IMG/VR virus record: IMGVR_UViG_3300043256_000348
Coordinates: 28,948-92,947 of that record
Source: a virus
Direction: 5' to 3' (one strand)
DNA: 64,000 nucleotides
The notes under the pieces were generated by a model, which was given only the letters and a program-made list of their open reading frames with translations, searched no databases and was not told where the DNA came from. Below, one piece after another: positions 7,597 through 51,876 of the stretch. Positions within the stretch are counted from its first letter, which is position 1; every line of letters begins with the position of its first letter. The translations under genes and the position numbers were made by a program.

Positions 7597-8543
7597 GAAT
7601 CCTCTACCTCAGCAGCCAGCGATGGTATGAGCAGAAGATGGACCGCACTCGCGTTCTGAATGTCGAGGCCGTACGCAGGCAGCCGAGCGTCAACCTGCAC
7701 ATCTGGGGCAACGGCTGGCCAGATTACGTCGAGGGCGAACTACTGGAGCAAAACATCCGCCGCAGGGGCATTGAGTATCCCGACCTTGTGTGGTGCTTCA
7801 AGGCGAACGAGCACAAAGGCGTGGCTGAGTTCCCACGGCCGAAAGCCATCGAGCTAAACGACTGCTACGACGCCAAGATTGCTGACGAGGTACGGGCTGC
7901 CGCCCCGTCGCTTGTCGTCTACCACCACGAGAACGACTGGCAATCGGAGAACATGAGGGACGGAGCCCGACCGGGGTGTGATTTCATCCACGTTCCGCAC
8001 TGCGCAGACAAGGCCGTTTTCTACCGCGAGGGCGACTGGGACCGGCCGATCGACTGCCTCTTCGCCGGCGCGCTTCACGAGACGATCTACCCGCTCCGCT
8101 CGCGGTACGTGCAGCTCATCAAGGGCGGCGCGATTCCAGGCGAGGTCCGCCGCTTCCCAGGACACCGGACGCGAACTGCCGGTGAGGGGGAGGCCCAGCA
8201 CCACAGTTTCTCGAACCACCTGCGGCGGTCGAAGGTGGCCCTCTGCTGCTCCTCGACTTACAAGTACGCCCTAAGCAAGTACGTCGAGGCCATCGCGGCT
8301 GGATGCGTGGTGGTGGGCGATATGCCAGACGACCAGTTGTTCCGGGACACGCTAGGGCGGGCACTCGTTGAGGTGAACAACAGCATGGCAGACGACCAGA
8401 TCATGCGAATCGTGAAGGAAACACTGGCCGATCCGGCCGAGCTAGAACGGCGACGGGAGTTCGGATACGCCGAGTACCTAGCCGCCTACACTACGGAGCA
8501 CTGGGCTCGCCGGTTTCTGGAGGCTGCCAGTCGAGTCGTTTGA
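7593..8543 (+). CDS. Glycosyltransferase (CgeB / Glyco_trans_1_2-like)
   Basis: VPHCADKAVF, IDCLFAG...YPLR, SKVAL, KYVEAIAAG. Confidence 0.8.
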   Translation: MRILYLSSQRWYEQKMDRTRVLNVEAVRRQPSVNLHIWGNGWPDYVEGELLEQNIRRRGIEYPDLVWCFKANEHKGVAEFPRPKAIELNDCYDAKIADEVRAAAPSLVVYHHENDWQSENMRDGARPGCDFIHVPHCADKAVFYREGDWDRPIDCLFAGALHETIYPLRSRYVQLIKGGAIPGEVRRFPGHRTRTAGEGEAQHHSFSNHLRRSKVALCCSSTYKYALSKYVEAIAAGCVVVGDMPDDQLFRDTLGRALVEVNNSMADDQIMRIVKETLADPAELERRREFGYAEYLAAYTTEHWARRFLEAASRVV

Positions 8544-8766
8544 TGTGCTCGACCATCTTCGGCTCCCGCTTTACTATCGCGAGAACCTCCGGCCGGCTGA
8601 AGTGCCGCCCCATGATCCATAGCGGCTCGTCAACCAGCTCCTGCAATTCAGAGTCAGGCATTTCTGTCTTGAGAGTGCCGCACCGGGGGCACCAGAATAC
8701 GCGGCGTGCGTCCCCGGTCGGCACGCCGACGTTCTGTAAAGTATGGTCGCAAATCGAACAGGCCAT
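8491..8766 (-). CDS. Small zinc-ribbon protein
   Basis: CSIC...WCPRCG; AAGGAG SD. Confidence 0.55.
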   Translation of the reverse strand: MACSICDHTLQNVGVPTGDARRVFWCPRCGTLKTEMPDSELQELVDEPLWIMGRHFSRPEVLAIVKREPKMVEHIKRLDWQPPETGEPSAP

Positions 8767-9008
8767 GTCATTTCTCCTTCGCCTTGGTGGCTTGCTGATC
8801 TTTCCACGCGGCGGTCCGCTCAACACACTCGTCGCAGTAGTATCGCTGGAAGCATCCCCGGCTCTGGAGCCAGTGCGCAACGGCGGTCTTGCACCGGCTG
8901 CACATCGCAGTGCGGTGCTCGTAGCCGCGTCCGTAGCCCCCCCTGCTGAATGTCCGCACCAAAGGCCGGGCGAAGCGCTTCACAGGATTTGTTACTACGA
9001 GGGCCACG

Positions 9009-17408: not shown

Positions 17409-17464
17409 AAAATGACAAGTGCCTTTTCGCAGAAGGCTTTCAGTTTCCCTAAACGGAGGACGTG

Positions 17465-17914
17465 ATGAGCGAACTGTACGAAACGGTCAAGGCGGAGTTC
17501 CAGCAGATTACCGCTGCCCTAAAGTGGCGGCTGGACGACGGGTTCCAATTGAGCGACGTGCTGCCCACGATCCGGGATTTTGTCGGCGCGGCCACGGTGA
17601 TCGCCGAGACGCTGGACGTACCGGGCCCCGAGAAGAAGGCGTTGGTCGTCGAGGCGGCCGTTGCCTGGTGGCAGAAGGGCATGCGGCCGTGGCTGGAGCG
17701 AGTGGACGCAGAAGGGAAGCCAGTATTCAATCTGCCTGGCCCAGACTGGATGTACTGGAACATGGTGGGCATGATCCTGCCCACGCTGGTCGGCTTCATG
17801 GTGGACTGGATCGTCAAGGACCGCAACGGCGTGATCGGCGGCTGGCCGAGCGTCGGAGAGGCCCTGTCCCGTTTGGCTCCGCCAGAGCCCACACCTGGCT
17901 CGGAGACGGCCTAA
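17465..17914 (+). CDS. Hypothetical, possible membrane/holin-like protein
   Basis: GGAGG SD; G.EKK motif; hydrophobic C-terminal helix. Confidence 0.5.
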   Translation: MSELYETVKAEFQQITAALKWRLDDGFQLSDVLPTIRDFVGAATVIAETLDVPGPEKKALVVEAAVAWWQKGMRPWLERVDAEGKPVFNLPGPDWMYWNMVGMILPTLVGFMVDWIVKDRNGVIGGWPSVGEALSRLAPPEPTPGSETA

Positions 17915-17977
17915 GCAGAACCGAGCGGCGTCGTGCGATTTCAGTATTGTGCAACCCCATTTCACAGGAGACGTGTT

Positions 17978-18409
17978 ATGAAATTGCTTACTGCGAGACC
18001 TCTTGCCGTATGCCTGGTGTTTACGGTTCTGGTCGGATTGTTGACCAATGCCTTAACGGCCCCCAGTGCCGAACCGGAAAAGACGGCCGGCTGGCTGAGC
18101 CCCGCTGCCGTTGCGGTGTCTGCGCCCGCGGCAGAAGAGGAGAGAGTCGAACGCAGGCTCGGGTACCGCGAGCGCAGGGCCTTGGGCTTGACCTTCCGGA
18201 ACGTCCGCCGCGTATTGGATGAGATGGACCAGGATGGCGAACTGGAAGGCAAGAGCTCGTCGATGCTCGCCGTCGAAGTGTTCGACCATCTGGTGGATGA
18301 AAACCCACAGGAATTCAGCGCGGTGGCAGAGGTGGACTGGGATGCGATCCTGGATTTCCTGACGAAGCTGATCGAATTGATCCTCAAGTTGCTCATTCTA
18401 TTCAGCTAG
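17978..18409 (+). CDS. Predicted exported/membrane protein
   Basis: Signal-like N-terminus; amphipathic C-terminal DWDAILDFLTKLIELILKLLILF. Confidence 0.6.
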   Translation: MKLLTARPLAVCLVFTVLVGLLTNALTAPSAEPEKTAGWLSPAAVAVSAPAAEEERVERRLGYRERRALGLTFRNVRRVLDEMDQDGELEGKSSSMLAVEVFDHLVDENPQEFSAVAEVDWDAILDFLTKLIELILKLLILFS

Positions 18410-18442: not shown

Positions 18443-19117
18443 ATGTACAGATTGCTTTTTGCGGCTGTGGCCTGGTTGAGCCTGTCGGGGACGGGCGCGG
18501 TCGCAGGACTGGAGATCAGCCAACCGCCGGACGAGGTGGCACCAGGTGACGATGTTGAACTAATCGTCAGCGGGATCAACTACCAGCAGTTGCCCCAAGC
18601 TACGCTCCGCTACTTTCCACGCAATCAGGTACGAGTACGCGGGACTCTTTCATGGGGCCTTGAACCACGTATCGACTTCCGGGCACGGTTGCCAGGCGAA
18701 TATCTGGTGTTCGTATCGGCCACGATCGACGGCAAGAACGAGTATTCTGAAGTCATTATCGTTGTTGGCGACAAGCCCCCAGATCCACCCCCGCCTCCGC
18801 CTCCTCCGCCACCGTCAGACCTTTCAGCGTTCGTGGCAGACCTCATCGAAGAGCTTGACATCGAGACCGGGACCAGCGAAGTCGCGGGATTCTTTCAAGA
18901 CGCCGTGCCGAAAGTTGACAGTGACGAGCTGCGCGGCTCGAAGGCGATCGTCGAGGCGGTCACGAAACGCATTGCCGCGATGAACTCGACCAAGTGGAAA
19001 GCGTTCTCCAGCCTGCTCTACGGCCATCTGCTCAACGAGCTGCAACTCGTCAGCCAGAGTCAGTGGTCAGACGCCTACAAGGAAGTCGTGCTGGGACTGG
19101 GAGGAGTGAAGCCATGA
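18443..19117 (+). CDS. Predicted exported two-domain protein with poly-Pro linker
   Basis: Signal peptide, Ig-like beta-rich domain, poly-Pro linker. Confidence 0.65.
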   Translation: MYRLLFAAVAWLSLSGTGAVAGLEISQPPDEVAPGDDVELIVSGINYQQLPQATLRYFPRNQVRVRGTLSWGLEPRIDFRARLPGEYLVFVSATIDGKNEYSEVIIVVGDKPPDPPPPPPPPPPSDLSAFVADLIEELDIETGTSEVAGFFQDAVPKVDSDELRGSKAIVEAVTKRIAAMNSTKWKAFSSLLYGHLLNELQLVSQSQWSDAYKEVVLGLGGVKP

Positions 19118-19296
19118 CGAACCAACGTGACAAACCGACAATTGGGCGGCCCAATCCGTGGCCGGACGAAGACGTGATAACTCACGTTGACGGCGATGTG
19201 GGAGCGCCACTCCCGCCAGATTGCAAGCGGGAGTGGCCCGAGGCGTGCAAAACCGACACCCCGGAGCGAGTGGTAGTAGAGGGGGTAAAGCCATGA
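19114..19296 (+). CDS. Small hypothetical protein
   Basis: ATGA-coupled at both ends. Confidence 0.45.
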   Translation: MTNQRDKPTIGRPNPWPDEDVITHVDGDVGAPLPPDCKREWPEACKTDTPERVVVEGVKP

Positions 19297-20207
19297 AGAC
19301 AGATCGAGAAATTATCGAACTGCTTGAGTGGACGGGACACCTACAATACCCGTTTGGGAAATACGTAGGTACCATTACGGCAGATGACATTGGATTGCTT
19401 TCGTTAACCGATCCGGTCGTCAAGGAAGCAATTCGCAGCTACCAGGATCTCCTAGTTGTCAGTCTCGAACCACTCGCACTGCGTCATCACGGGCGGTCCG
19501 TGTGTTGCGACGGCGACTGCGGGATCGCGACCCGGGAGTTGTTTGAGCAACCCCGGTGTGGCTGTCCTGATTACGGCCCGCAGGTACAGCCGGCCGTCGG
19601 GACCGGCAGTTGGAAACGGTGCCACAGCATCGGCGACTTCCACGCGGCGACCGTGTACGTTCACGAATCCGGTATGGCGTCGTGGCTGAAGCCGAAGTTC
19701 GATGAGGTATGGAAGCTCACCGTGGCGGCCTACGAGGCGTTGGGCCTGCGGTGGATTCGGACCGACAACCGGAATGCCAACATCGACTTCTCGTTCGTGA
19801 CCGGATCGCGAGGCTGGATCGGCCTGGCCATCGTCGGCTCCGGGCAATCCTGCGGTAGCCAAATTTGGTGCAAGTACCTGGCGAGCTGGCGGCCGTCAAA
19901 CGTTGTGCGAGAATGGGCCATCCTGGTGATGCACGAGCTGGGCCACAATGCAGGCCTCTACCATACGCGCGGCGGGGTAATGAACGCAGGGATAATCTAC
20001 GGCTTACCCGCTAGTTGGGCGGGGGATCCGGCCGAAAGCATTCTCAAGAGATATTACGGCGGTCAACCGATCGAGCCGGAGCCGCCGGTACCTCCGCCTC
20101 CGCCTCCCCCGCCACCTGGCCCAGAAGACGAAGAGTACGGGAGCCTGAAGATGTTCAGGGAGGGTAAGTGGAAAGATTTTGATGTACTTGAACGGGCGAA
20201 AGTTTGA
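19293..20207 (+). CDS. Matrixin (M10/MMP-like) zinc metalloprotease with cysteine-switch prodomain
   Basis: PRCGCPD switch, HELGHNAGLYH zinc motif, VMN Met-turn. Confidence 0.88.
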   Translation: MKTDREIIELLEWTGHLQYPFGKYVGTITADDIGLLSLTDPVVKEAIRSYQDLLVVSLEPLALRHHGRSVCCDGDCGIATRELFEQPRCGCPDYGPQVQPAVGTGSWKRCHSIGDFHAATVYVHESGMASWLKPKFDEVWKLTVAAYEALGLRWIRTDNRNANIDFSFVTGSRGWIGLAIVGSGQSCGSQIWCKYLASWRPSNVVREWAILVMHELGHNAGLYHTRGGVMNAGIIYGLPASWAGDPAESILKRYYGGQPIEPEPPVPPPPPPPPPGPEDEEYGSLKMFREGKWKDFDVLERAKV

Positions 20208-20443
20208 AAGGTGGATGAATGAGCGAAGGTATATCGATGTCCGAAGGCCGCGATGATACTAACTTGCATTCTCTTGTCTGTCCACACTGCAAACAGACGA
20301 CTTCGATTCCGGAAGTGCAAGCATTTGAGAAACAGCAGCTAGTTTACGTGCGCTGCGGGCATTGTAATGCAGGTATCACCAAAGAGCAAATCGCCAATAC
20401 CTACCGGGAGTACAAGTAACCTTTTTCCAAAAGGAGAGTCATT

Positions 20444-21019
20444 ATGTGGAGTCTAATTCTCACCGCGTTGTTGACGGCGACCCCAGCCCCCGTCGCCGAC
20501 AGTCCAACCGTCTGGACCATCGCGGCGGACGGCTCGATGGTGGAGTTGTGGCCAGGGCCTGTAGAAGTCGTACCGGAAGAGGAAGAGGCGGACAAGAAGG
20601 TGAAGGAATCACCTCAGCAGCAGGACATCCGGGTAGTGGCCTTCACGGCGACATGGTGTGCCGCCTGCTCCGAAGTGAAGTCGATCGTGCGGGAGATGCA
20701 GGAGCGCAGCTACCCTATCGAACTGGCCGACGCGGACGAGCCGAAGAACAGGGCAACGTTGCGGAAGTACCGGATCGAACAGCTACCGGCGTACATCATC
20801 TATTACAGGGACAAGCCGGTGGAGTATTGCGAGGGACCGCGGTCGCGGGCGGCCCTGGTCGATTGGATCAGTGACGAGCAGATCAAGCGGGCCAAGAGTG
20901 GGCCGTTGACCAACCCTGAAGACGCGCGGTTCTTCCGCGAGAAACATTGGGTGTTGTCGCGGGGGACGTGCGGCATGTTGGGTTGTTCGATTCACGGCGG
21001 AGGCTGGGTGCTGCGGTGA
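20444..21019 (+). CDS. Exported thioredoxin-like protein
   Basis: Signal peptide; FTATWCAAC; cis-Pro region IEQLP. Confidence 0.8.
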   Translation: MWSLILTALLTATPAPVADSPTVWTIAADGSMVELWPGPVEVVPEEEEADKKVKESPQQQDIRVVAFTATWCAACSEVKSIVREMQERSYPIELADADEPKNRATLRKYRIEQLPAYIIYYRDKPVEYCEGPRSRAALVDWISDEQIKRAKSGPLTNPEDARFFREKHWVLSRGTCGMLGCSIHGGGWVLR

Positions 21020-21279
21020 CACCGAAGCAGGCTGCACATATCGCCGCGGCGATGCTGGAGTGCCAACCCAAGGAGTTGTCCGAGGGACTGATTGCCCACC
21101 TTGAAACGCTCGACCGCTTGATGCGGAAGAGTTGCAGGCCAAACGGTCTAGAAAGCGTGGATCTCATCGCCGAAGCGGTGATCCAGGATCAACTGGGCCT
21201 GGCTGCGGTCGTGACGGACATCAACGACCGGCTAATGGAATTGGAAACACAGATCAGAGATTTACGGGAGAAGGGATGA
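21016..21279 (+). CDS. Hypothetical coiled-coil protein
   Basis: GTGA/ATGA coupling. Confidence 0.45.
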   Translation: MTPKQAAHIAAAMLECQPKELSEGLIAHLETLDRLMRKSCRPNGLESVDLIAEAVIQDQLGLAAVVTDINDRLMELETQIRDLREKG

Positions 21280-21896
21280 TTTGGCTCTACGGAATCCTGA
21301 TCGTATTGGCAGTCCTGTATGTCGTCGGTGCCGTGATCCTTTTCGCGGTGATGGTCCGCCAGCATTGGCACGGCACCGGACGGGAAGCGGTGTTCATCTC
21401 GTTGAGGATGGCCTTGCGGTGGCCAGCCTATATGTGGTTTGCATTAAACCTTATGGGCATCCTGAAGGATTCGTACTTCGTGTTGCTGCTACCGTTCGCA
21501 GCGATGACCGCCGTACTGGCAGCAATGGGCCGGCCGTGGTGGTGCGGCTGTGGAGGCTGGGAGCTGTACATCGTTAGCTCGCCCCACTATAGTCAGCACC
21601 TCTTCGATTCCTGGTCGTTCAGTCACTTCGCCCAGGGCGGAGCCTATTACGCGGCTGTCCGCGGTTTTACGCTACAGCGTTCCCGCCTCTTCGCCTTGGT
21701 GGGTTCGCTAGTGCCGGGCATCGTCTGGGAATTTGCCGAGAACAGCCGTTGGATCATTGGGGCATACCGCGACAGTGGTGCCCGCTGGTACGACGGCGAC
21801 ACGATCGCAAACGCCAACGGCGATCTGCTGTCCTGCCTCCTCGGCGCGCTGGTGATGTGCCTGATCCTGAAGACTGCAAAGGGGAGCCGGGCATGA
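21276..21896 (+). CDS. DUF2585 (UPF0314)-like membrane protein
   Basis: MGRPWWC.CG, SQHLFD.WSFSH, WEFAENS.WII..YR, Y.GDTI.N..GD. Confidence 0.75.
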   Translation: MIWLYGILIVLAVLYVVGAVILFAVMVRQHWHGTGREAVFISLRMALRWPAYMWFALNLMGILKDSYFVLLLPFAAMTAVLAAMGRPWWCGCGGWELYIVSSPHYSQHLFDSWSFSHFAQGGAYYAAVRGFTLQRSRLFALVGSLVPGIVWEFAENSRWIIGAYRDSGARWYDGDTIANANGDLLSCLLGALVMCLILKTAKGSRA

Positions 21897-22162
21897 AGAA
21901 ACTCGGCCGATACGTGGTCAACGTCCTAATCAGCTTAGATCAGTTAGCCAATTCCATACTGCTCGGGGACCCCGACGAAACGATCTCCTCTCGCCTCGGC
22001 AGGATCAAGGTCAAGTGGGGTGGCGAGATTCCCTGGACCCGTCCAGTATCACGAGTTACAGACCGGCTGCTTGATTGGATTGACCCTAATCACAGCAGGG
22101 ATAGTATTGAGCATAACGAAGGAAATAACGGCCTGGTCGATAGGCCGCATAAACCATTCTAG
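21893..22162 (+). CDS. Conserved phage protein
   Basis: NVLISLDQLAN..L.GDPDETISSRLG...WIDPNH. Confidence 0.7.
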   Translation: MKKLGRYVVNVLISLDQLANSILLGDPDETISSRLGRIKVKWGGEIPWTRPVSRVTDRLLDWIDPNHSRDSIEHNEGNNGLVDRPHKPF

Positions 22163-28822: not shown

Positions 28823-29003
28823 CCAGATTCCTATTCAGCCCGATAACCGTAGGCGTCGGCCGTCCTCAGCGGCAATGTCGGGTGGGGCGAGTTGCCCCTG
28901 ACATCGCCGATCAGCCGATGGGTAACGGCCGTGAAATCGACCGTCGGCTCCTTACTTCAACGACACGAGGCTGGGCGACCGGCCGCAACCGGAGGGCGTA
29001 ACC

Positions 29004-48719: not shown

Positions 48720-48750
48720 CTTGAATCACAATCGGGTATCGGAACAACCG

Positions 48751-48787
48751 GGCCCGCGACCTTTCGAGGTTGCGGGCCTTTTTCTTT
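48751..48787 (+). terminator. Intrinsic terminator / attenuator upstream of the protease gene
   Basis: ggcccgcgacct-ttcg-aggttgcgggcc followed by TTTTTCTTT. Confidence 0.75.
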
Positions 48788-48801
48788 GCCGGGAGCGAGA
48801 C

Positions 48802-51800
48802 ATGGCGACAGTCGAAACGGTGGACGCGGCTGCCCCGATCCTGGACAGCCTACGGAGCCGGAGGCCGGACGGGCGGTGGGGTATCGGCACGGCGAAGAGC
48901 TACCTTGATGCGACGCCACCGAACCTGTTCGACGTTTCACTCGATGAGTGGCAGGCGGTCATGGAGAAGGCCGCCGACACCCTCACTTACTGCGAGCGGG
49001 AAGCGACTATCGAGGCGCTGTCGTGGAGTGTGCTAGGGGAGGAGGGCCGCGACCGGCTCGGCCGGAATATGCCGTTGCTGCCGGTCAAGCGTGCGAAGAA
49101 GCCGGCGAACATCGAGGGGTTCGTCCTCGCGTTCGACTACACGCTGACGACGATTGACGAGGACCGGGACTTCGACGTGCTGGAGCCGAAGGGGGCGACG
49201 GTCGATATGCTCGGGCCGTTGCTGTTCAACCACGTCACGTTGCAGCCGATCGGCAAGCCGCTGAAGATCCTCAAGCAGAACAGCAAGCGGCTCGCAGAGC
49301 AGTCGGCCATTATGGACTTCCCCTTCGGCCGGGACGTGGCCCAGATGATCGAGTTCCAGGTGCTCCGGCGAATGTCGCACGGCTTCCTGCCGACGAAGTA
49401 CGAAGAGCGCACGCCGAAGAAGGCCGACGACGAAGACGAGGCCGTGGGCTGGCACATCATGGAGTACGAGATCATGGAGCGGTCCGTGGTGTCGGTGGCC
49501 AGCAACCGCGGTGCGATCATCGAGGCGTGGAACCTGCTGGGGGAGAAGGGCTTCCACGACGACAGAGTGAAGGGCTGGCTGAAGAGCGTCTATGAGGCGA
49601 GGCCCGTGATCGGCAGAGGCTTCGCACCCGACCGTTGCCTGATCTGTCACAACACTTCGGCCAGGCAGGCTCCGCACCATCAATGCAACTGCTGCGACTC
49701 TCCCGCCCCCGACCCGTCCGATTGCGACCAGACGCCGCCCGCGTTTCGGTGGCCAGCAACCGCGGTGCGATCATCTGATGTGGTTGACCCGGCGAAAGAA
49801 GCAGAGCCTCAGTCACTTCAGTATCCGGCAGGCAAGTCAAGTAAGAGGCTGACTGAAGACGGCGTGGAGACGTGCGAACTGTGCGATGCCCCGGCAGTGA
49901 CAACCACAAACATGCGTCACCAGTGGTGCGAAGACCATACGCCGGAAGTATGCAAAAGAAAAACCGCATTGATCCCCTTCAATAAATCAGCCGGCTCGAC
50001 GTTTGACGTTTGGCGGGAGCACCTGGAGCCGGCCAAGCTGGAGTACGACTGGGCGAGCCGCTACATCGGCTGCCAGGTCAAGCACCTGTTCTGGGTGCAC
50101 ACCAAGGTTCCGAAGGCGCGGATCGGCTCGTGGCTGACGGGGCTGCGTGAGGTGCTGGCCGACTACAGCGTCGAGGACACCCGCCACATTTCAAGCGGCG
50201 GCGAGGAGCTGCCGCCGAAGTATGAGATCATCCAGCTCACCCCAGACAAGGCCGATGACTTCCTGGTTCAAGGCTTGCAGTTCCGCTGCGGGCCGGACCG
50301 CAAGTTCGTACTCGGCTTCGAGCCGTACTACGGCATGCTGGAGGTGATATTCTACACGTCCGACAACGAGGCGGCCAAGCAGTTCGCACGCGAGGTGATC
50401 GGCAAGACGTGGGAGTGGTCGCGGGTGAACAACTTTCTCAAGGGGCAGGCGTTCAGCTTGACAGGTGGCTTCCTACCGAAGACCGGCGAGCGATGGGACG
50501 GGCTGTTCCTTCCCGATCGTAACAAGCGGCCGGTCATGCGCGCCGTGGAGGCGGTCAACGAGAAGCGGGCGGCCGCGTCCAACCGCGGCATGATCCTGAT
50601 GGGCCCGCCGGGAACCGGCAAGACGCTGTCGGCTCGCATCGTCCGGAACCTCGCCGACGCGACGTTCATCTGGGTGGCGGCGAGGGACTTCTGGAACGTT
50701 GGGGCGTTCGGAGCCTTCACTCACTCGTTCGATCTGGCCCGGGAGCTGGCCCCCTCGGTCATCTGCTTCGAGGATGTGGACAACTGGATCAATGGGGGCG
50801 GGACGGAGGAGTTGCTGAAGAGCGAGATGGACGGCATGAACCGGTCATCGGGCGTGCTCACGCTGCTAACGACGAACTACCCGGAGCTGATCCCGGACGC
50901 GCTGATCGACCGCCCCGGGCGGTTCCACGACGTGTTGCTGTTCGACCTGCCGGACGGGAAAGTCAGGGGCGAGATGCTCGCCGCGTGGCTGCCGGAAGCG
51001 CCGGGGAAGGATCGGAAGAGGGCGGTTGGGAAGACGGACGGCTACAGCGGGGCCCACATCTTCGAGCTGGCCGAGTACGCCAAGACGCTGCGAGACGAGG
51101 ACTCGCTTTCGATCGGCGAGGCGTTGCTGAAAGCCATCGACAAGATCGAAGAGCAACGGGAGCTAATCACGGGCGTGCAGCTTGAGGGCAGCCGCTACAA
51201 GCCGAACCGCTCAGGTTTCCCGGGGCAATTCGGCGCGTTGATACCGGCCAAGGTGTTCGCTTTCGGAAACAAGACAGAGAAGACGGTCCCCGGCAACCCG
51301 TCCGGCGGATCGGGCGACGGCACCGAGGGCACGTGGAGCAAGCTGAAGCTGAGCGACTTCACCGACAAAGACTGGGGCGACCTGTCGGCGGCCGAGAAGG
51401 GCAATATTAAGAAATACTTTGCCTGGCACCCGGGCACCGTCGAGACGTTCGCCGACCTGAAGCTGGGGCACCACTTTGCGTCCGGTGACGACGCGGGCAA
51501 GGCGAGCCTGAACGGGGTGCGGAACGCGCTGGCCAGGGCGAACCAGGTGGACGGGATCGGCGACGAACTGGAACGGGTGATGACGCATCTACGGGCACAC
51601 CTGCCGGAGCGGTCGGTCGTTATTGCTCATCTAGCTGTCGGTCTCGACGACGATGCGAAGCGGTGGCTCGCTGCAATAGAAAAGCTCGAAGAGGCGTGGG
51701 CTCAAGCGACGGGTAAGCGAAGCGGGGACGAAAAGGAAACACTATGCAAGCAAACGCTCGCATGGCTGGCGGCTGCGGCGACGGAGGAGGAGTTGAGGCA

Positions 51801-51876
51801 GGCCAAGGCAGTGATCGACGCGAGGTTGCGGGAGAAACGCAACCGGAAGCTGAGGAAGCTGTTTCGCCTGAGATGA
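48802..51876 (+). CDS. HK97-type prohead protease fused to an AAA+ ATPase and an extra C-terminal domain
   Basis: DRDFDVL.PKG, LLFNH...PIGK, MSHGF, ERSVVSVASN..A; then GPPGTGKT, ICFEDVD, TTN.PE...ALIDRPGRF, GYSGA. Confidence 0.85.
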   Translation: MATVETVDAAAPILDSLRSRRPDGRWGIGTAKSYLDATPPNLFDVSLDEWQAVMEKAADTLTYCEREATIEALSWSVLGEEGRDRLGRNMPLLPVKRAKKPANIEGFVLAFDYTLTTIDEDRDFDVLEPKGATVDMLGPLLFNHVTLQPIGKPLKILKQNSKRLAEQSAIMDFPFGRDVAQMIEFQVLRRMSHGFLPTKYEERTPKKADDEDEAVGWHIMEYEIMERSVVSVASNRGAIIEAWNLLGEKGFHDDRVKGWLKSVYEARPVIGRGFAPDRCLICHNTSARQAPHHQCNCCDSPAPDPSDCDQTPPAFRWPATAVRSSDVVDPAKEAEPQSLQYPAGKSSKRLTEDGVETCELCDAPAVTTTNMRHQWCEDHTPEVCKRKTALIPFNKSAGSTFDVWREHLEPAKLEYDWASRYIGCQVKHLFWVHTKVPKARIGSWLTGLREVLADYSVEDTRHISSGGEELPPKYEIIQLTPDKADDFLVQGLQFRCGPDRKFVLGFEPYYGMLEVIFYTSDNEAAKQFAREVIGKTWEWSRVNNFLKGQAFSLTGGFLPKTGERWDGLFLPDRNKRPVMRAVEAVNEKRAAASNRGMILMGPPGTGKTLSARIVRNLADATFIWVAARDFWNVGAFGAFTHSFDLARELAPSVICFEDVDNWINGGGTEELLKSEMDGMNRSSGVLTLLTTNYPELIPDALIDRPGRFHDVLLFDLPDGKVRGEMLAAWLPEAPGKDRKRAVGKTDGYSGAHIFELAEYAKTLRDEDSLSIGEALLKAIDKIEEQRELITGVQLEGSRYKPNRSGFPGQFGALIPAKVFAFGNKTEKTVPGNPSGGSGDGTEGTWSKLKLSDFTDKDWGDLSAAEKGNIKKYFAWHPGTVETFADLKLGHHFASGDDAGKASLNGVRNALARANQVDGIGDELERVMTHLRAHLPERSVVIAHLAVGLDDDAKRWLAAIEKLEEAWAQATGKRSGDEKETLCKQTLAWLAAAATEEELRQAKAVIDARLREKRNRKLRKLFRLR

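Follow-up and report, generated by a model that had tools for sequence, protein, structure and literature searches.

A phage gene for a probable matrix metalloproteinase-like zymogen with a conserved cysteine switch and no signal peptide, and its possible role in exit from the host

Why would a phage encode a protein that resembles the precursor of a matrix metalloproteinase (MMP), and where might such a protein act? The question is raised by a gene, P0001, within a 64,000-nucleotide stretch of viral DNA (the window; positions 28,948 to 92,947 of IMG/VR record IMGVR_UViG_3300043256_000348). P0001 lies at 19293..20207 on the + strand, from an ATG at 19293 to a stop codon at 20205-20207, and encodes a 304 aa protein with the features of a pro-MMP-like zinc endopeptidase. 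It had been singled out by the original prediction on the strength of several quoted motifs, and all of these are present in the translation, among them VKEAIRSYQ and DGDCGIATRELFEQPRCGCPD, the latter containing PRCGCPD. The ATG-equivalent start position is common to all homologues in our alignment, and an alternative TTG start at 19221 would add only a hydrophilic extension.

The AF2 model of P0001 (pLDDT 85.9) begins with a helical N-terminal prodomain (residues about 1-95; 19293..19577, +) that appears to resemble MMP prodomains at the level of the fold, with helices at residues 4-13, 30-35, 41-53, 55-66 and 78-84. The cysteine-switch motif PRCGCPD (residues 87-93; 19551..19571, +) includes Cys89, encoded at 19557-19559, and is followed by a metzincin catalytic domain of MMP topology with five strands and three helices (residues 104-258; 19602..20066, +). 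Within this domain, sequence and alignment identify the zinc-binding consensus HELGHNAGLYH (HExxHxxGxxH; residues 214-224; 19932..19964, +) and the Met-turn residue Met230 (19980..19982, +), which sits in a conserved RGGVMN. A Pro-rich linker (residues 259-275) and a small, variable C-terminal beta-hairpin module (residues 276-304), together at 20067..20204 (+), complete the protein, the AF2 model placing the hairpin strands at residues 282-289 and 292-299.

We compared P0001 with known proteases by sequence, profile and structure. Using phmmer and a family profile, the first matches were the pro-forms of MMP-1, -3, -9 and -10, with alignments covering both the switch and the zinc motif. The family profile matched 1su3 at E 1.5e-5 and aligned prodomain helix 3 and the switch to proMMP-1, -3 and -10, with PRCGCPD opposite their PRCGVPD. 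The best Foldseek matches were all proMMPs, spanning about 270 alignment columns but with an rmsd of about 12 Å, and VIA-align superposed the catalytic domain on solved MMPs with Z 14.4-15.3 and rmsd 2.3-2.9 Å over 136-144 residues in nearly all rows, the best 50 entries all being MMPs, karilysin included. A structure search of the ESM Atlas additionally gave TM 0.60-0.67 over residues 1-259 against whole proMMP clusters (PF01471 plus PF00413).

When evaluating conservation across the family, we observed that C89, D93, H214, E215, H218, G227, G228, H224 and M230 are invariant in a 26-sequence alignment, R88 being nearly so, and that 230 of 233 full-length homologues having the zinc motif carry a CxxxD switch motif. 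Given this invariance and near-universal occurrence, the motif is not there by chance. Within the same set of 233, an Arg precedes the Cys in 220, a Pro precedes the Asp in 185 and a Tyr or Phe follows the Asp in 196, and the switch persists even in a subfamily with altered, HExxxH spacing. The sequence, profile and fold matches, together with this conservation, bear out the prediction of a phage-encoded MMP-like zymogen with a cysteine-switch motif, here found to be conserved, and we are highly confident that P0001 is an MMP-fold cysteine-switch zymogen. Separately, we considered a switch disulfide formed through the second Cys of CGC and rejected it, as that position is Cys in just 108 of 230 members and does not track with thioredoxin neighbours.

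MMP prodomains had also been related to peptidoglycan-binding domains, a kinship that for P0001 may hold at the level of the fold, through the structural likeness over residues 1-259 and the aligned helix 3 and switch, but not at the level of the profile, P0001 having no match to the PG_binding_1 HMM at E <= 10. Across 23 related phage records the same HMM (PF01471) had no match at E <= 0.1, and five planctomycete genomes yielded no PG_binding_1 domains at E <= 1e-6. The string DGDCGIAT in P0001 is DGxxGxxT-like and bears only a resemblance to a PG-binding repeat; searched alone by sequence against the PDB, the prodomain returned nothing but spurious succinyl-CoA synthetase matches.

The Peptidase_M10 HMM, proposed as a further check, likewise scored P0001 below threshold (PF00413, 14.1 bits, E 0.044, against a cut-off of 24); the best Pfam match was the generic Reprolysin_3 (28.4 bits; cut-off 22.4), and neither PHROGs nor NCBIfam returned a family for it. 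P0001 has the HExxHxxGxxH and downstream Met-turn that define the metzincin clan, the five-stranded sheet and three helices of the M10A fold, superposing on solved MMPs, and, judged by sequence, the PRCGxPD that M10A proteins carry about 10-20 residues before the catalytic domain. It has neither the secretion signal nor the membrane anchor of M10A, and does not belong to M10A in the strict sense.

Comparison with known systems sharpens both the likeness and the differences. Animal and plant proMMPs (M10A; 1su3 proMMP-1, 1slm proMMP-3, 8k5w proMMP-9 and 9csx proMMP-10) share with P0001 a helical prodomain ending in PRCGxPD, a catalytic domain of five strands and three helices, an HExxHxxGxxH followed by S/T, and a Met-turn. 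In contrast to them, P0001 is phage-encoded, is made without the signal peptide of classical MMPs, lacks a hemopexin domain and has its Met-turn two residues closer to the third His. It also appears to lack the His/Asp ligands of the structural zinc and calcium sites in the S-loop, since in alignments to proMMP-1 and proMMP-10 this segment is shorter and contains no His, and no His between residues 160 and 200 is conserved across the aligned family. Nearest by language-model features (0.93 and 0.91) are two ESM Atlas clusters of phage "Matrixin / PG_binding_1" proteins from Uroviricota (146 and 51 members), which resemble P0001 in size (~300 aa) and phage origin but, unlike its family, are recognised by PF00413 and PF01471; our literature search found no experimental work on these proteins. 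MMPs of insect dsDNA viruses (granulovirus, ascovirus, entomopoxvirus and nudivirus) are likewise virus-encoded and share the MMP fold (BFVD matches 4e-8 to 1e-3), but they serve viruses of eukaryotic hosts, and for most of them the match is limited to the catalytic domain. Animals are the most likely source of these insect-virus enzymes. Karilysin of Tannerella forsythia, the sole bacterial MMP among the structural matches, shares the MMP catalytic fold (Z 14.6-14.8) in a prokaryotic setting but is secreted and has a 14-residue pro-segment with an aspartate switch instead of PRCGxPD (PMC6949598). Mirolysin (pappalysin family) and promyroilysin (astacin family) are bacterial metzincin zymogens blocked, as proposed here, by a pro-segment Cys, but they are secreted, have short extended pro-segments and belong to other metzincin families (PMC6949598).

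The P0001 family is large, unnamed and phage-borne, comprising at least 453 clusters at 50% identity. A tblastn search of 50,697 GenBank phages gave no match, so that no cultured-phage relative is known at E <= 1e-3. Cellular matches came from three Planctomycetota genomes only: among 185,579 species genomes they were limited to Planctomicrobium and Thalassoglobus, and one further Planctomycetota genome was found separately. In Thalassoglobus neptunius KOR42 the related gene is on a contig of 35 kb. The idea of a host gene or auxiliary metabolic gene (AMG) was dropped because the gene is carried by just 2 of 401 sampled Planctomycetota genomes. The phage host is probably a planctomycete, a group whose envelopes are protein-dominated yet contain peptidoglycan (PMC12673574, PMC4432640). 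A 2025 review of Planctomycetota mentions phages a single time.

P0001 has no signal peptide and no N-terminal hydrophobic segment, and such a segment is present in 1 of 226 family members. Its surroundings differ: ORFs with hydrophobic segments account for 51% of those within 1.5 kb of the MMP gene versus 13% at 1.5-4.5 kb (Fisher p 3e-8, 16 loci). The cassette is headed by two small hydrophobic-segment proteins (150 aa and 143-158 aa; 17462..18409, +), holin candidates without a family match, and just 4 of 16 loci have small proteins with two or more hydrophobic segments close to the MMP gene. The next gene (18443..19117, +) encodes a partner protein in which a signal peptide is followed by a small beta domain, a Pro-rich linker and a C-terminal domain of five helices that contains an invariant Trp. 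In 14 of 16 loci a gene of this architecture immediately precedes the MMP gene, its stop codon often overlapping the MMP start codon, and it was recognised through architecture and multiple alignment rather than BLAST-level synteny, by which almost no neighbours are conserved among related loci. Neither the missing signal peptide nor this conserved secreted partner had been remarked upon in the original prediction.

The partner model has pLDDT above 90 for residues 125-220 but gave no Foldseek match at E <= 1e-3 and no family match. Csm2-like five-helix bundles, the best VIA-align result at Z 7.3, are generic and were set aside as uninformative; the ESM Atlas offered solely an Ig-like N-terminal domain with low scores, and a profile search returned 5 matches, swamped by low-complexity words. 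Between the partner and P0001 lies a 60-aa micro-ORF (19115..19297, +) whose stop overlaps the MMP gene start (ATGA); it has no counterpart in related loci, where the partner and MMP genes abut.

Downstream, P0001 is followed by a 66-aa protein with weak zinc-ribbon Pfam matches (20219..20419, +), a thioredoxin-fold protein with a WCAAC motif and an N-terminal signal-peptide-like segment (20444..21019, +; PF00085, 1.6e-12; NCBIfam thioredoxin/PDI-type) and a DUF2585 membrane protein (21279..21896, +; PF10755, 5.8e-19), the covering ORF having three hydrophobic segments. The exported thioredoxin had been put forward as a possible activator of the protease. Its adjacency is real: in all four records with a thioredoxin domain, the gene follows the MMP gene at a distance of 0.4-0.9 kb, shares its strand and encodes a signal-peptide-like segment, the other three records being G005, G007 and G008. 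The arrangement is not general, however, as it is confined to these 4 of 23 records. A second exported partner family occurs downstream in 6 loci, and a promoter and terminator scan found nothing above shuffled sequences.

No canonical endolysin had been visible in the window, and this absence now extends to the whole 92.9-kb complete genome. A scan for 14 Pfam lysin families found none there and none in four other near-complete relatives, each of the five genomes being at least 98% complete. Endolysin, holin and spanin PHROGs were likewise absent from this genome among the matches listed, outside of which lay 8 weak families (E above 2e-5) in one run. The absence of known lysin families leaves room for a novel lysin elsewhere in these genomes. 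We know of no metzincin that serves as an endolysin, and our literature search found no paper linking Peptidase_M10 to phage lysis.

Because no ordinary cell-wall lysin was found, we considered P0001 as a possible exit route. Our leading reading, which we hold tentatively and rate somewhat short of an even chance, is that P0001 is a pro-MMP-like protease made in latent form in the cytoplasm and activated in the envelope to bring about lysis or egress. The helical prodomain ends in the PRCGxPD loop, whose Cys89 thiolate would be expected to cap the zinc held by HExxHxxGxxH. Since there is no signal peptide, the inactive zymogen is expected to build up inside the infected cell, which is probably a planctomycete, in a cytoplasm whose reducing conditions would favour the Cys-Zn bond; latency would thereby protect host and phage proteins. 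Late in infection, the protein may reach the envelope through membrane permeabilisation, like a canonical holin-dependent endolysin. There the switch might open by thiol oxidation or exchange, in keeping with the redox activation and lysis role first suggested, or by displacement of the prodomain, and progeny would be released as the opened protease cleaves envelope proteins, peptidoglycan peptides or both. The family-wide lack of a signal peptide, the cassette of exported and membrane proteins and the missing lysins speak for this reading; the scarcity near the gene of small proteins with two or more hydrophobic segments, the restriction of the thioredoxin to 4 of 23 records and the lack of a PG_binding_1 match speak against it. 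The phage P1 SAR endolysin Lyz is a thiol-gated lysis enzyme, held inactive by a Cys until it reaches the periplasm. By analogy, P0001 may share this concept of Cys-held latency until the periplasm. Lyz differs in having an unrelated lysozyme fold, signal-anchor-release export and a disulfide isomerisation mechanism.

If this function holds, P0001 would be the first lysis enzyme of the protease class to carry its own redox or compartment gate, and would explain how phages leave hosts of a little-studied phylum whose envelope is unusual and dominated by protein. A broader version, doubtful as a whole, is that Planctomycetota phages lyse their protein-rich hosts with a proteolytic rather than muralytic "endolysin", a signal-peptide-free pro-MMP zymogen whose PRCGxPD would sense the compartment, staying closed under the reducing conditions of the cytoplasm and opening in the envelope; in some phages an exported thioredoxin-fold protein from the same genome would assist. 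It would follow that the full MMP zymogen architecture of prodomain, switch and catalytic domain, old and abundant, was invented by phages or bacteria and not by animals. Function aside, a canonical PRCGxPD cysteine-switch zymogen is present in hundreds of phage lineages. Phage zymogens are relevant to the debate over how MMPs arose and were transferred horizontally (PMC12587646), and members of the family, small, single-chain and free of a signal peptide, could serve as proMMP models in studies of switch opening.

A role in remodelling the envelope or cell surface, rather than in lysis, is unlikely on balance but the best of the alternatives. Here the protease would act in the periplasm or after release from lysed cells, trimming proteins on the host surface (receptors, pili, holdfast or S-layer-like proteins, for example), which could prevent superinfection, release virions from debris or prime neighbouring cells. 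The exported and membrane cassette fits this role equally well, one family member has collagen-like C-terminal repeats, and MMPs are broad proteases of extracellular proteins (PMC6949598). Remodelling does not, however, explain how a protein without a signal peptide would leave the cell before lysis, nor does it account for the missing recognisable lysins in five near-complete genomes.

The exported neighbours around a non-exported protease could also mean that the protease never leaves the cytoplasm. In that case a signal would activate the zymogen, whose targets would be host or defence proteins, or phage proteins in need of processing; we regard this as improbable. The family-wide absence of a signal peptide suits such a role, as do the adjacent recombination genes (RusA, ParB-like and helicase) in place of structural genes and the apparent precedent of CapP, reported as a cytoplasmic bacterial metallopeptidase with a cysteine switch (PMC13228613). 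Against it stand the strong enrichment, across 16 loci, of exported and membrane proteins near the gene, the secreted and tightly coupled upstream partner, the export of the neighbouring thioredoxins and a fold that is that of extracellular MMPs.

Envelope-degrading enzymes are common in phage virions, and latency would shield virion proteins from a protease packaged or ejected to digest a proteinaceous envelope on entry; the collagen-like repeats of the one homologue are, moreover, typical of fibres. Nevertheless, P0001 sits in a non-structural region, separated by more than 20 kb from the portal, head and tail genes, and no structural-protein neighbours were seen across the 16 loci, leaving a virion-associated enzyme very improbable.

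Least credible is that P0001 is not a zymogen at all, its PRCGxPD likeness being confined to sequence and its Cys being structural (in a disulfide or second metal site) or the protein a non-catalytic binder: the conserved C110 and C187, together with the missing structural-zinc histidines, do indicate metal or disulfide chemistry different from that of MMPs, and one subfamily has the HExxxH spacing, but the Arg, Cys, Pro and Asp of the switch are all kept at a proMMP-like spacing from the catalytic domain, the catalytic Glu, three His and Met-turn are invariant, and whole-protein models superpose on proMMPs.

We found that the open reading frame at 19293-20207 on the plus strand translates without interruption into P0001, a 304-residue pro-MMP-like zinc endopeptidase, and that every string cited for it in the original prediction is present: the switch PRCGCPD at residues 87-93 (19551-19571, +), the zinc motif HELGHNAGLYH at residues 214-224 (19932-19964, +) and the Met-turn residue Met230, six residues past the third histidine of the zinc motif (19980-19982, +). 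An alternative TTG start lies 24 codons upstream and would add a hydrophilic stretch; the starts of the homologues all correspond to the P0001 ATG rather than to this TTG. The source record is a 92,947-bp IMG/VR virus with direct terminal repeats and a CheckV completeness of 100%, so the gene was correctly placed in a phage.

Against Pfam, P0001 scored 28.4 bits with Reprolysin_3, barely over its cut-off, while the anticipated Peptidase_M10 match reached 14.1 bits, under the curated cut-off of 24, and neither PHROGs nor NCBIfam held a family for it. The top PDB matches of both the P0001 sequence and the family profile were the pro-forms of MMP-10, -1, -3 and -9 (profile against proMMP-1, E 1.5e-5), with alignments covering the last prodomain helix, PRCGxPD and the first strands and then, separately, the zinc helix. 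The AF2 model (mean pLDDT 85.9) has five N-terminal helices and a catalytic part whose predicted strand-helix-four-strands-two-helices arrangement is the MMP order. Foldseek ranked proMMP-9, -1, -10, -3 and -7 highest for this model over about 270 columns; VIA-align superposed about 140 of 157 catalytic-domain residues (Z 14.4-15.3, rmsd about 2.5 A), its top 50 entries being MMPs without exception, bacterial karilysin among them; and in the ESM Atlas residues 1-259 fell on whole proMMP clusters at TM 0.60-0.67, including matrilysin, plant 5-MMP and membrane-type MMPs. We therefore take the zymogen architecture as established: judging from sequence and modeled fold, P0001 very probably comprises a prodomain, a cysteine switch and a catalytic domain arranged as in MMP zymogens, with Cys89 predicted to sit on the zinc.

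A word-indexed search returned 144 relatives, none of them named, whose contigs measure at most 93 kb. An exhaustive profile search brought in 453 clusters (50% identity) at E <= 1e-3, 204 of them at E <= 1e-30. When aligning 26 sequences, we observed that C89, D93, H214, E215, H218, H224 and M230 are invariant and that R88 and Y94 are nearly so. The switch is present in 230 of 233 full-length members having the zinc motif, with the consensus P-R-C-G-(C/V/H)-P-D-(Y/F), which together with the proMMP matches bears out the proposed MMP-like zymogen with a cysteine switch. This pattern indicates that the combination of switch, zinc motif and Met-turn is under selection and is no chance match. An HExxxH subfamily (P0229, P0233, P0238 and others; loci L021-L024, protease copies at about 8001-8900) has one additional zinc-helix residue, between the catalytic glutamate and the second histidine, yet retains PRCxxPD and a Met-turn, HTRGGIMNPS; such spacing is uncommon among zincins. 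Another homologue, P0230, carries collagen triple-helix repeats C-terminal to its protease domain.

The closest characterized relatives are eukaryotic proMMPs and karilysin, the latter having a 14-residue pro-segment and relying on an aspartate switch, in contrast to the PRCGxPD cysteine switch of P0001. Unlike classical MMPs, P0001 has no signal peptide, and among 226 family members a hydrophobic segment at the N-terminus occurs in just one. Its S-loop appears shorter and free of histidine, whereas that of MMPs bears structural zinc and calcium ligands, and it is another two residues, the cysteines C110 and C187, that the family alignment shows as conserved. The distance between the Met-turn and the third histidine is smaller than in MMPs, and the catalytic domain is followed by nothing more than a proline-rich linker and a small variable module. 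The PG_binding_1 HMM, which recognizes MMP prodomains, matched neither P0001 nor 23 related phage records, leaving peptidoglycan binding unsupported, and the prodomain alone had no match in the PDB by sequence. Owing to these differences in signal peptide, S-loop, Met-turn, prodomain HMM and C-terminus, we do not assign P0001 to strict M10A; sequence and model comparisons argue for a sister family of M10A that is predicted to function like a proMMP. Among uncharacterized proteins, the closest relatives form clusters of phage proteins, about 300 residues long, auto-named "Matrixin / PG_binding_1" in the ESM Atlas, and phage MMP-like proteins are therefore already in databases. Our literature search found no paper on phage proteins of that name, and a 2025 phylogenetic study describing bacterial MMPs as widely diverse nowhere mentions phage, prodomain or cysteine switch. 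New in the P0001 family are the missing signal peptide and structural-zinc site, the conserved exported partners and the link to planctomycete phages.

A narrow-pattern scan of 185,579 prokaryotic species (one genome each) detected the family in no more than two, the cultured Thalassoglobus neptunius KOR42 and a MAG of Planctomicrobium. When 401 Planctomycetota genomes were searched with a profile, two carried the gene. The protease gene is thus carried by phages, seldom occurs in cells and is linked to Planctomycetota. At E <= 1e-6 the PG_binding_1 HMM had no match in five Planctomycetota genomes (G023, G024, G356, G026 and G032) and was positive in 7 of 14 control genomes, and Planctomycetota may rarely encode this domain.

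To search for a conventional lysis cassette we used six-frame HMMs of 14 families (Phage_lysozyme, Amidase_2, Amidase_3, SLT, GH19, GH25, GH108, M15_3, M15_4, M23, NlpC/P60, Hydrolase_2, Muramidase and CHAP), none of which exceeded threshold in the five genomes at least 98% complete (the window's own genome, G000, plus G001, G005, G006 and G008). Amidase_2, Phage_lysozyme, SLT and GH19 were searched in all 23 records and four further families in 13; the GH19, GH108 and Muramidase HMMs were silent in control genomes, so these three negatives are weaker. A PHROG scan of 124 ORFs from the whole genome recovered tail, head, portal, DNA-metabolism and glycan genes, with no endolysin, holin or spanin among the matches listed. 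The lack of a canonical endolysin, originally noted for the window, therefore extends to the whole genome for known families.

In the window, a helicase, a ParB-like gene and RusA precede the protease gene, which lies within a plus-strand series of small proteins having hydrophobic segments, among them a DUF2585 membrane protein and a thioredoxin whose N-terminus resembles a signal peptide. Across 23 IMG/VR loci and 2 genome loci, hardly any neighbors are conserved at BLAST level. In 16 loci, 51% of the ORFs less than 1.5 kb from the protease gene encode a protein with a hydrophobic segment, versus 13% at 1.5-4.5 kb (p 3e-8). An upstream partner of shared architecture (18443-19117 in the window) adjoins the protease gene in 14 of 16 well-called loci, its stop frequently overlapping the protease start; it consists of a signal peptide, a small beta domain, a Pro/Asp-rich linker and a helical domain of about 100 residues with an invariant tryptophan, which is confidently modeled and matches no known fold or family. 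The suggested thioredoxin link holds in part: 19 of the 23 records have no thioredoxin domain, but in all four that do the gene lies 0.4-0.9 kb downstream of the protease on the same strand and encodes a signal-peptide-like segment (active sites WCAAC, CGPC, WCPGC and CPPC). A second exported family fills the downstream slot in six loci (L005:5568-6287, L006:8918-10075, L007:8834-9445, L010:8872-9540, L012:7854-8585 and L028:3801-4736) and is fused to thioredoxin in L006; its members combine a hydrophobic segment with a His-rich 'HL..xH...W..H..HxG' motif and a C-terminal CPxGxC ahead of a basic tail, and match nothing in Pfam or NCBIfam. Just downstream of another protease, L009:9009-10061 (+) encodes a protein in which a signal peptide is combined with SAM-methyltransferase and thioredoxin (CGPC) domains, and the 717-residue homologue P0152 is a protease fused to this methyltransferase type. 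Both the second exported family and the P0152 fusion are consistent with a module. An exported SAM-dependent methyltransferase would itself be odd.

Canonical endolysins have no signal peptide and are held in the cytoplasm until a holin acts. The P0001 protease is likewise made without an export signal, is encoded amid exported and membrane proteins, and comes from a phage with a planctomycete host link and no second recognizable envelope hydrolase; alignments and models establish its predicted MMP fold, intact active site and conserved switch motif. The catalytic zinc of proMMPs is capped by the cysteine of PRCGxPD, and these zymogens become active when the thiol is modified or the prodomain is removed (PMC6949598). 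The planctomycete envelope is mostly protein, with peptidoglycan present (PMC12673574, PMC4432640). We tentatively propose a chain from latent cytoplasmic protease through envelope access and switch opening to envelope cleavage. Latency would be necessary for a broad endopeptidase building up in the cytoplasm, where the thiolate-zinc bond would be favored; membrane permeabilization would then give the protease access to the envelope, and oxidation or thiol exchange would open the switch, possibly with catalysis by an exported thioredoxin-fold protein in those phages that encode it. The opened protease might cut envelope proteins, peptidoglycan peptides or both. That the protease instead remodels the surface or destroys receptors is rather unlikely, and a regulated cytoplasmic enzyme is more doubtful still. 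We consider a virion enzyme improbable, and that P0001 is not a zymogen at all is the least credible alternative.

Three further ORFs were noted in the window. A 1051-residue ORF (48721-51876) stands directly ahead of the major head protein gene, and PHROG head, portal and morphogenesis families match this region. An 88-residue protein at the cassette end (21896-22162) has a match (7e-14) to phrog_3342, a family widespread among phages. Between the partner and protease genes sits a 60-residue ORF (19115-19297) that overlaps the partner stop with its start and the protease ATG with its TGA, and each of these junctions reads ...AAGCCATGA; since the two genes abut in related loci, this ORF looks like an inserted micro-gene.
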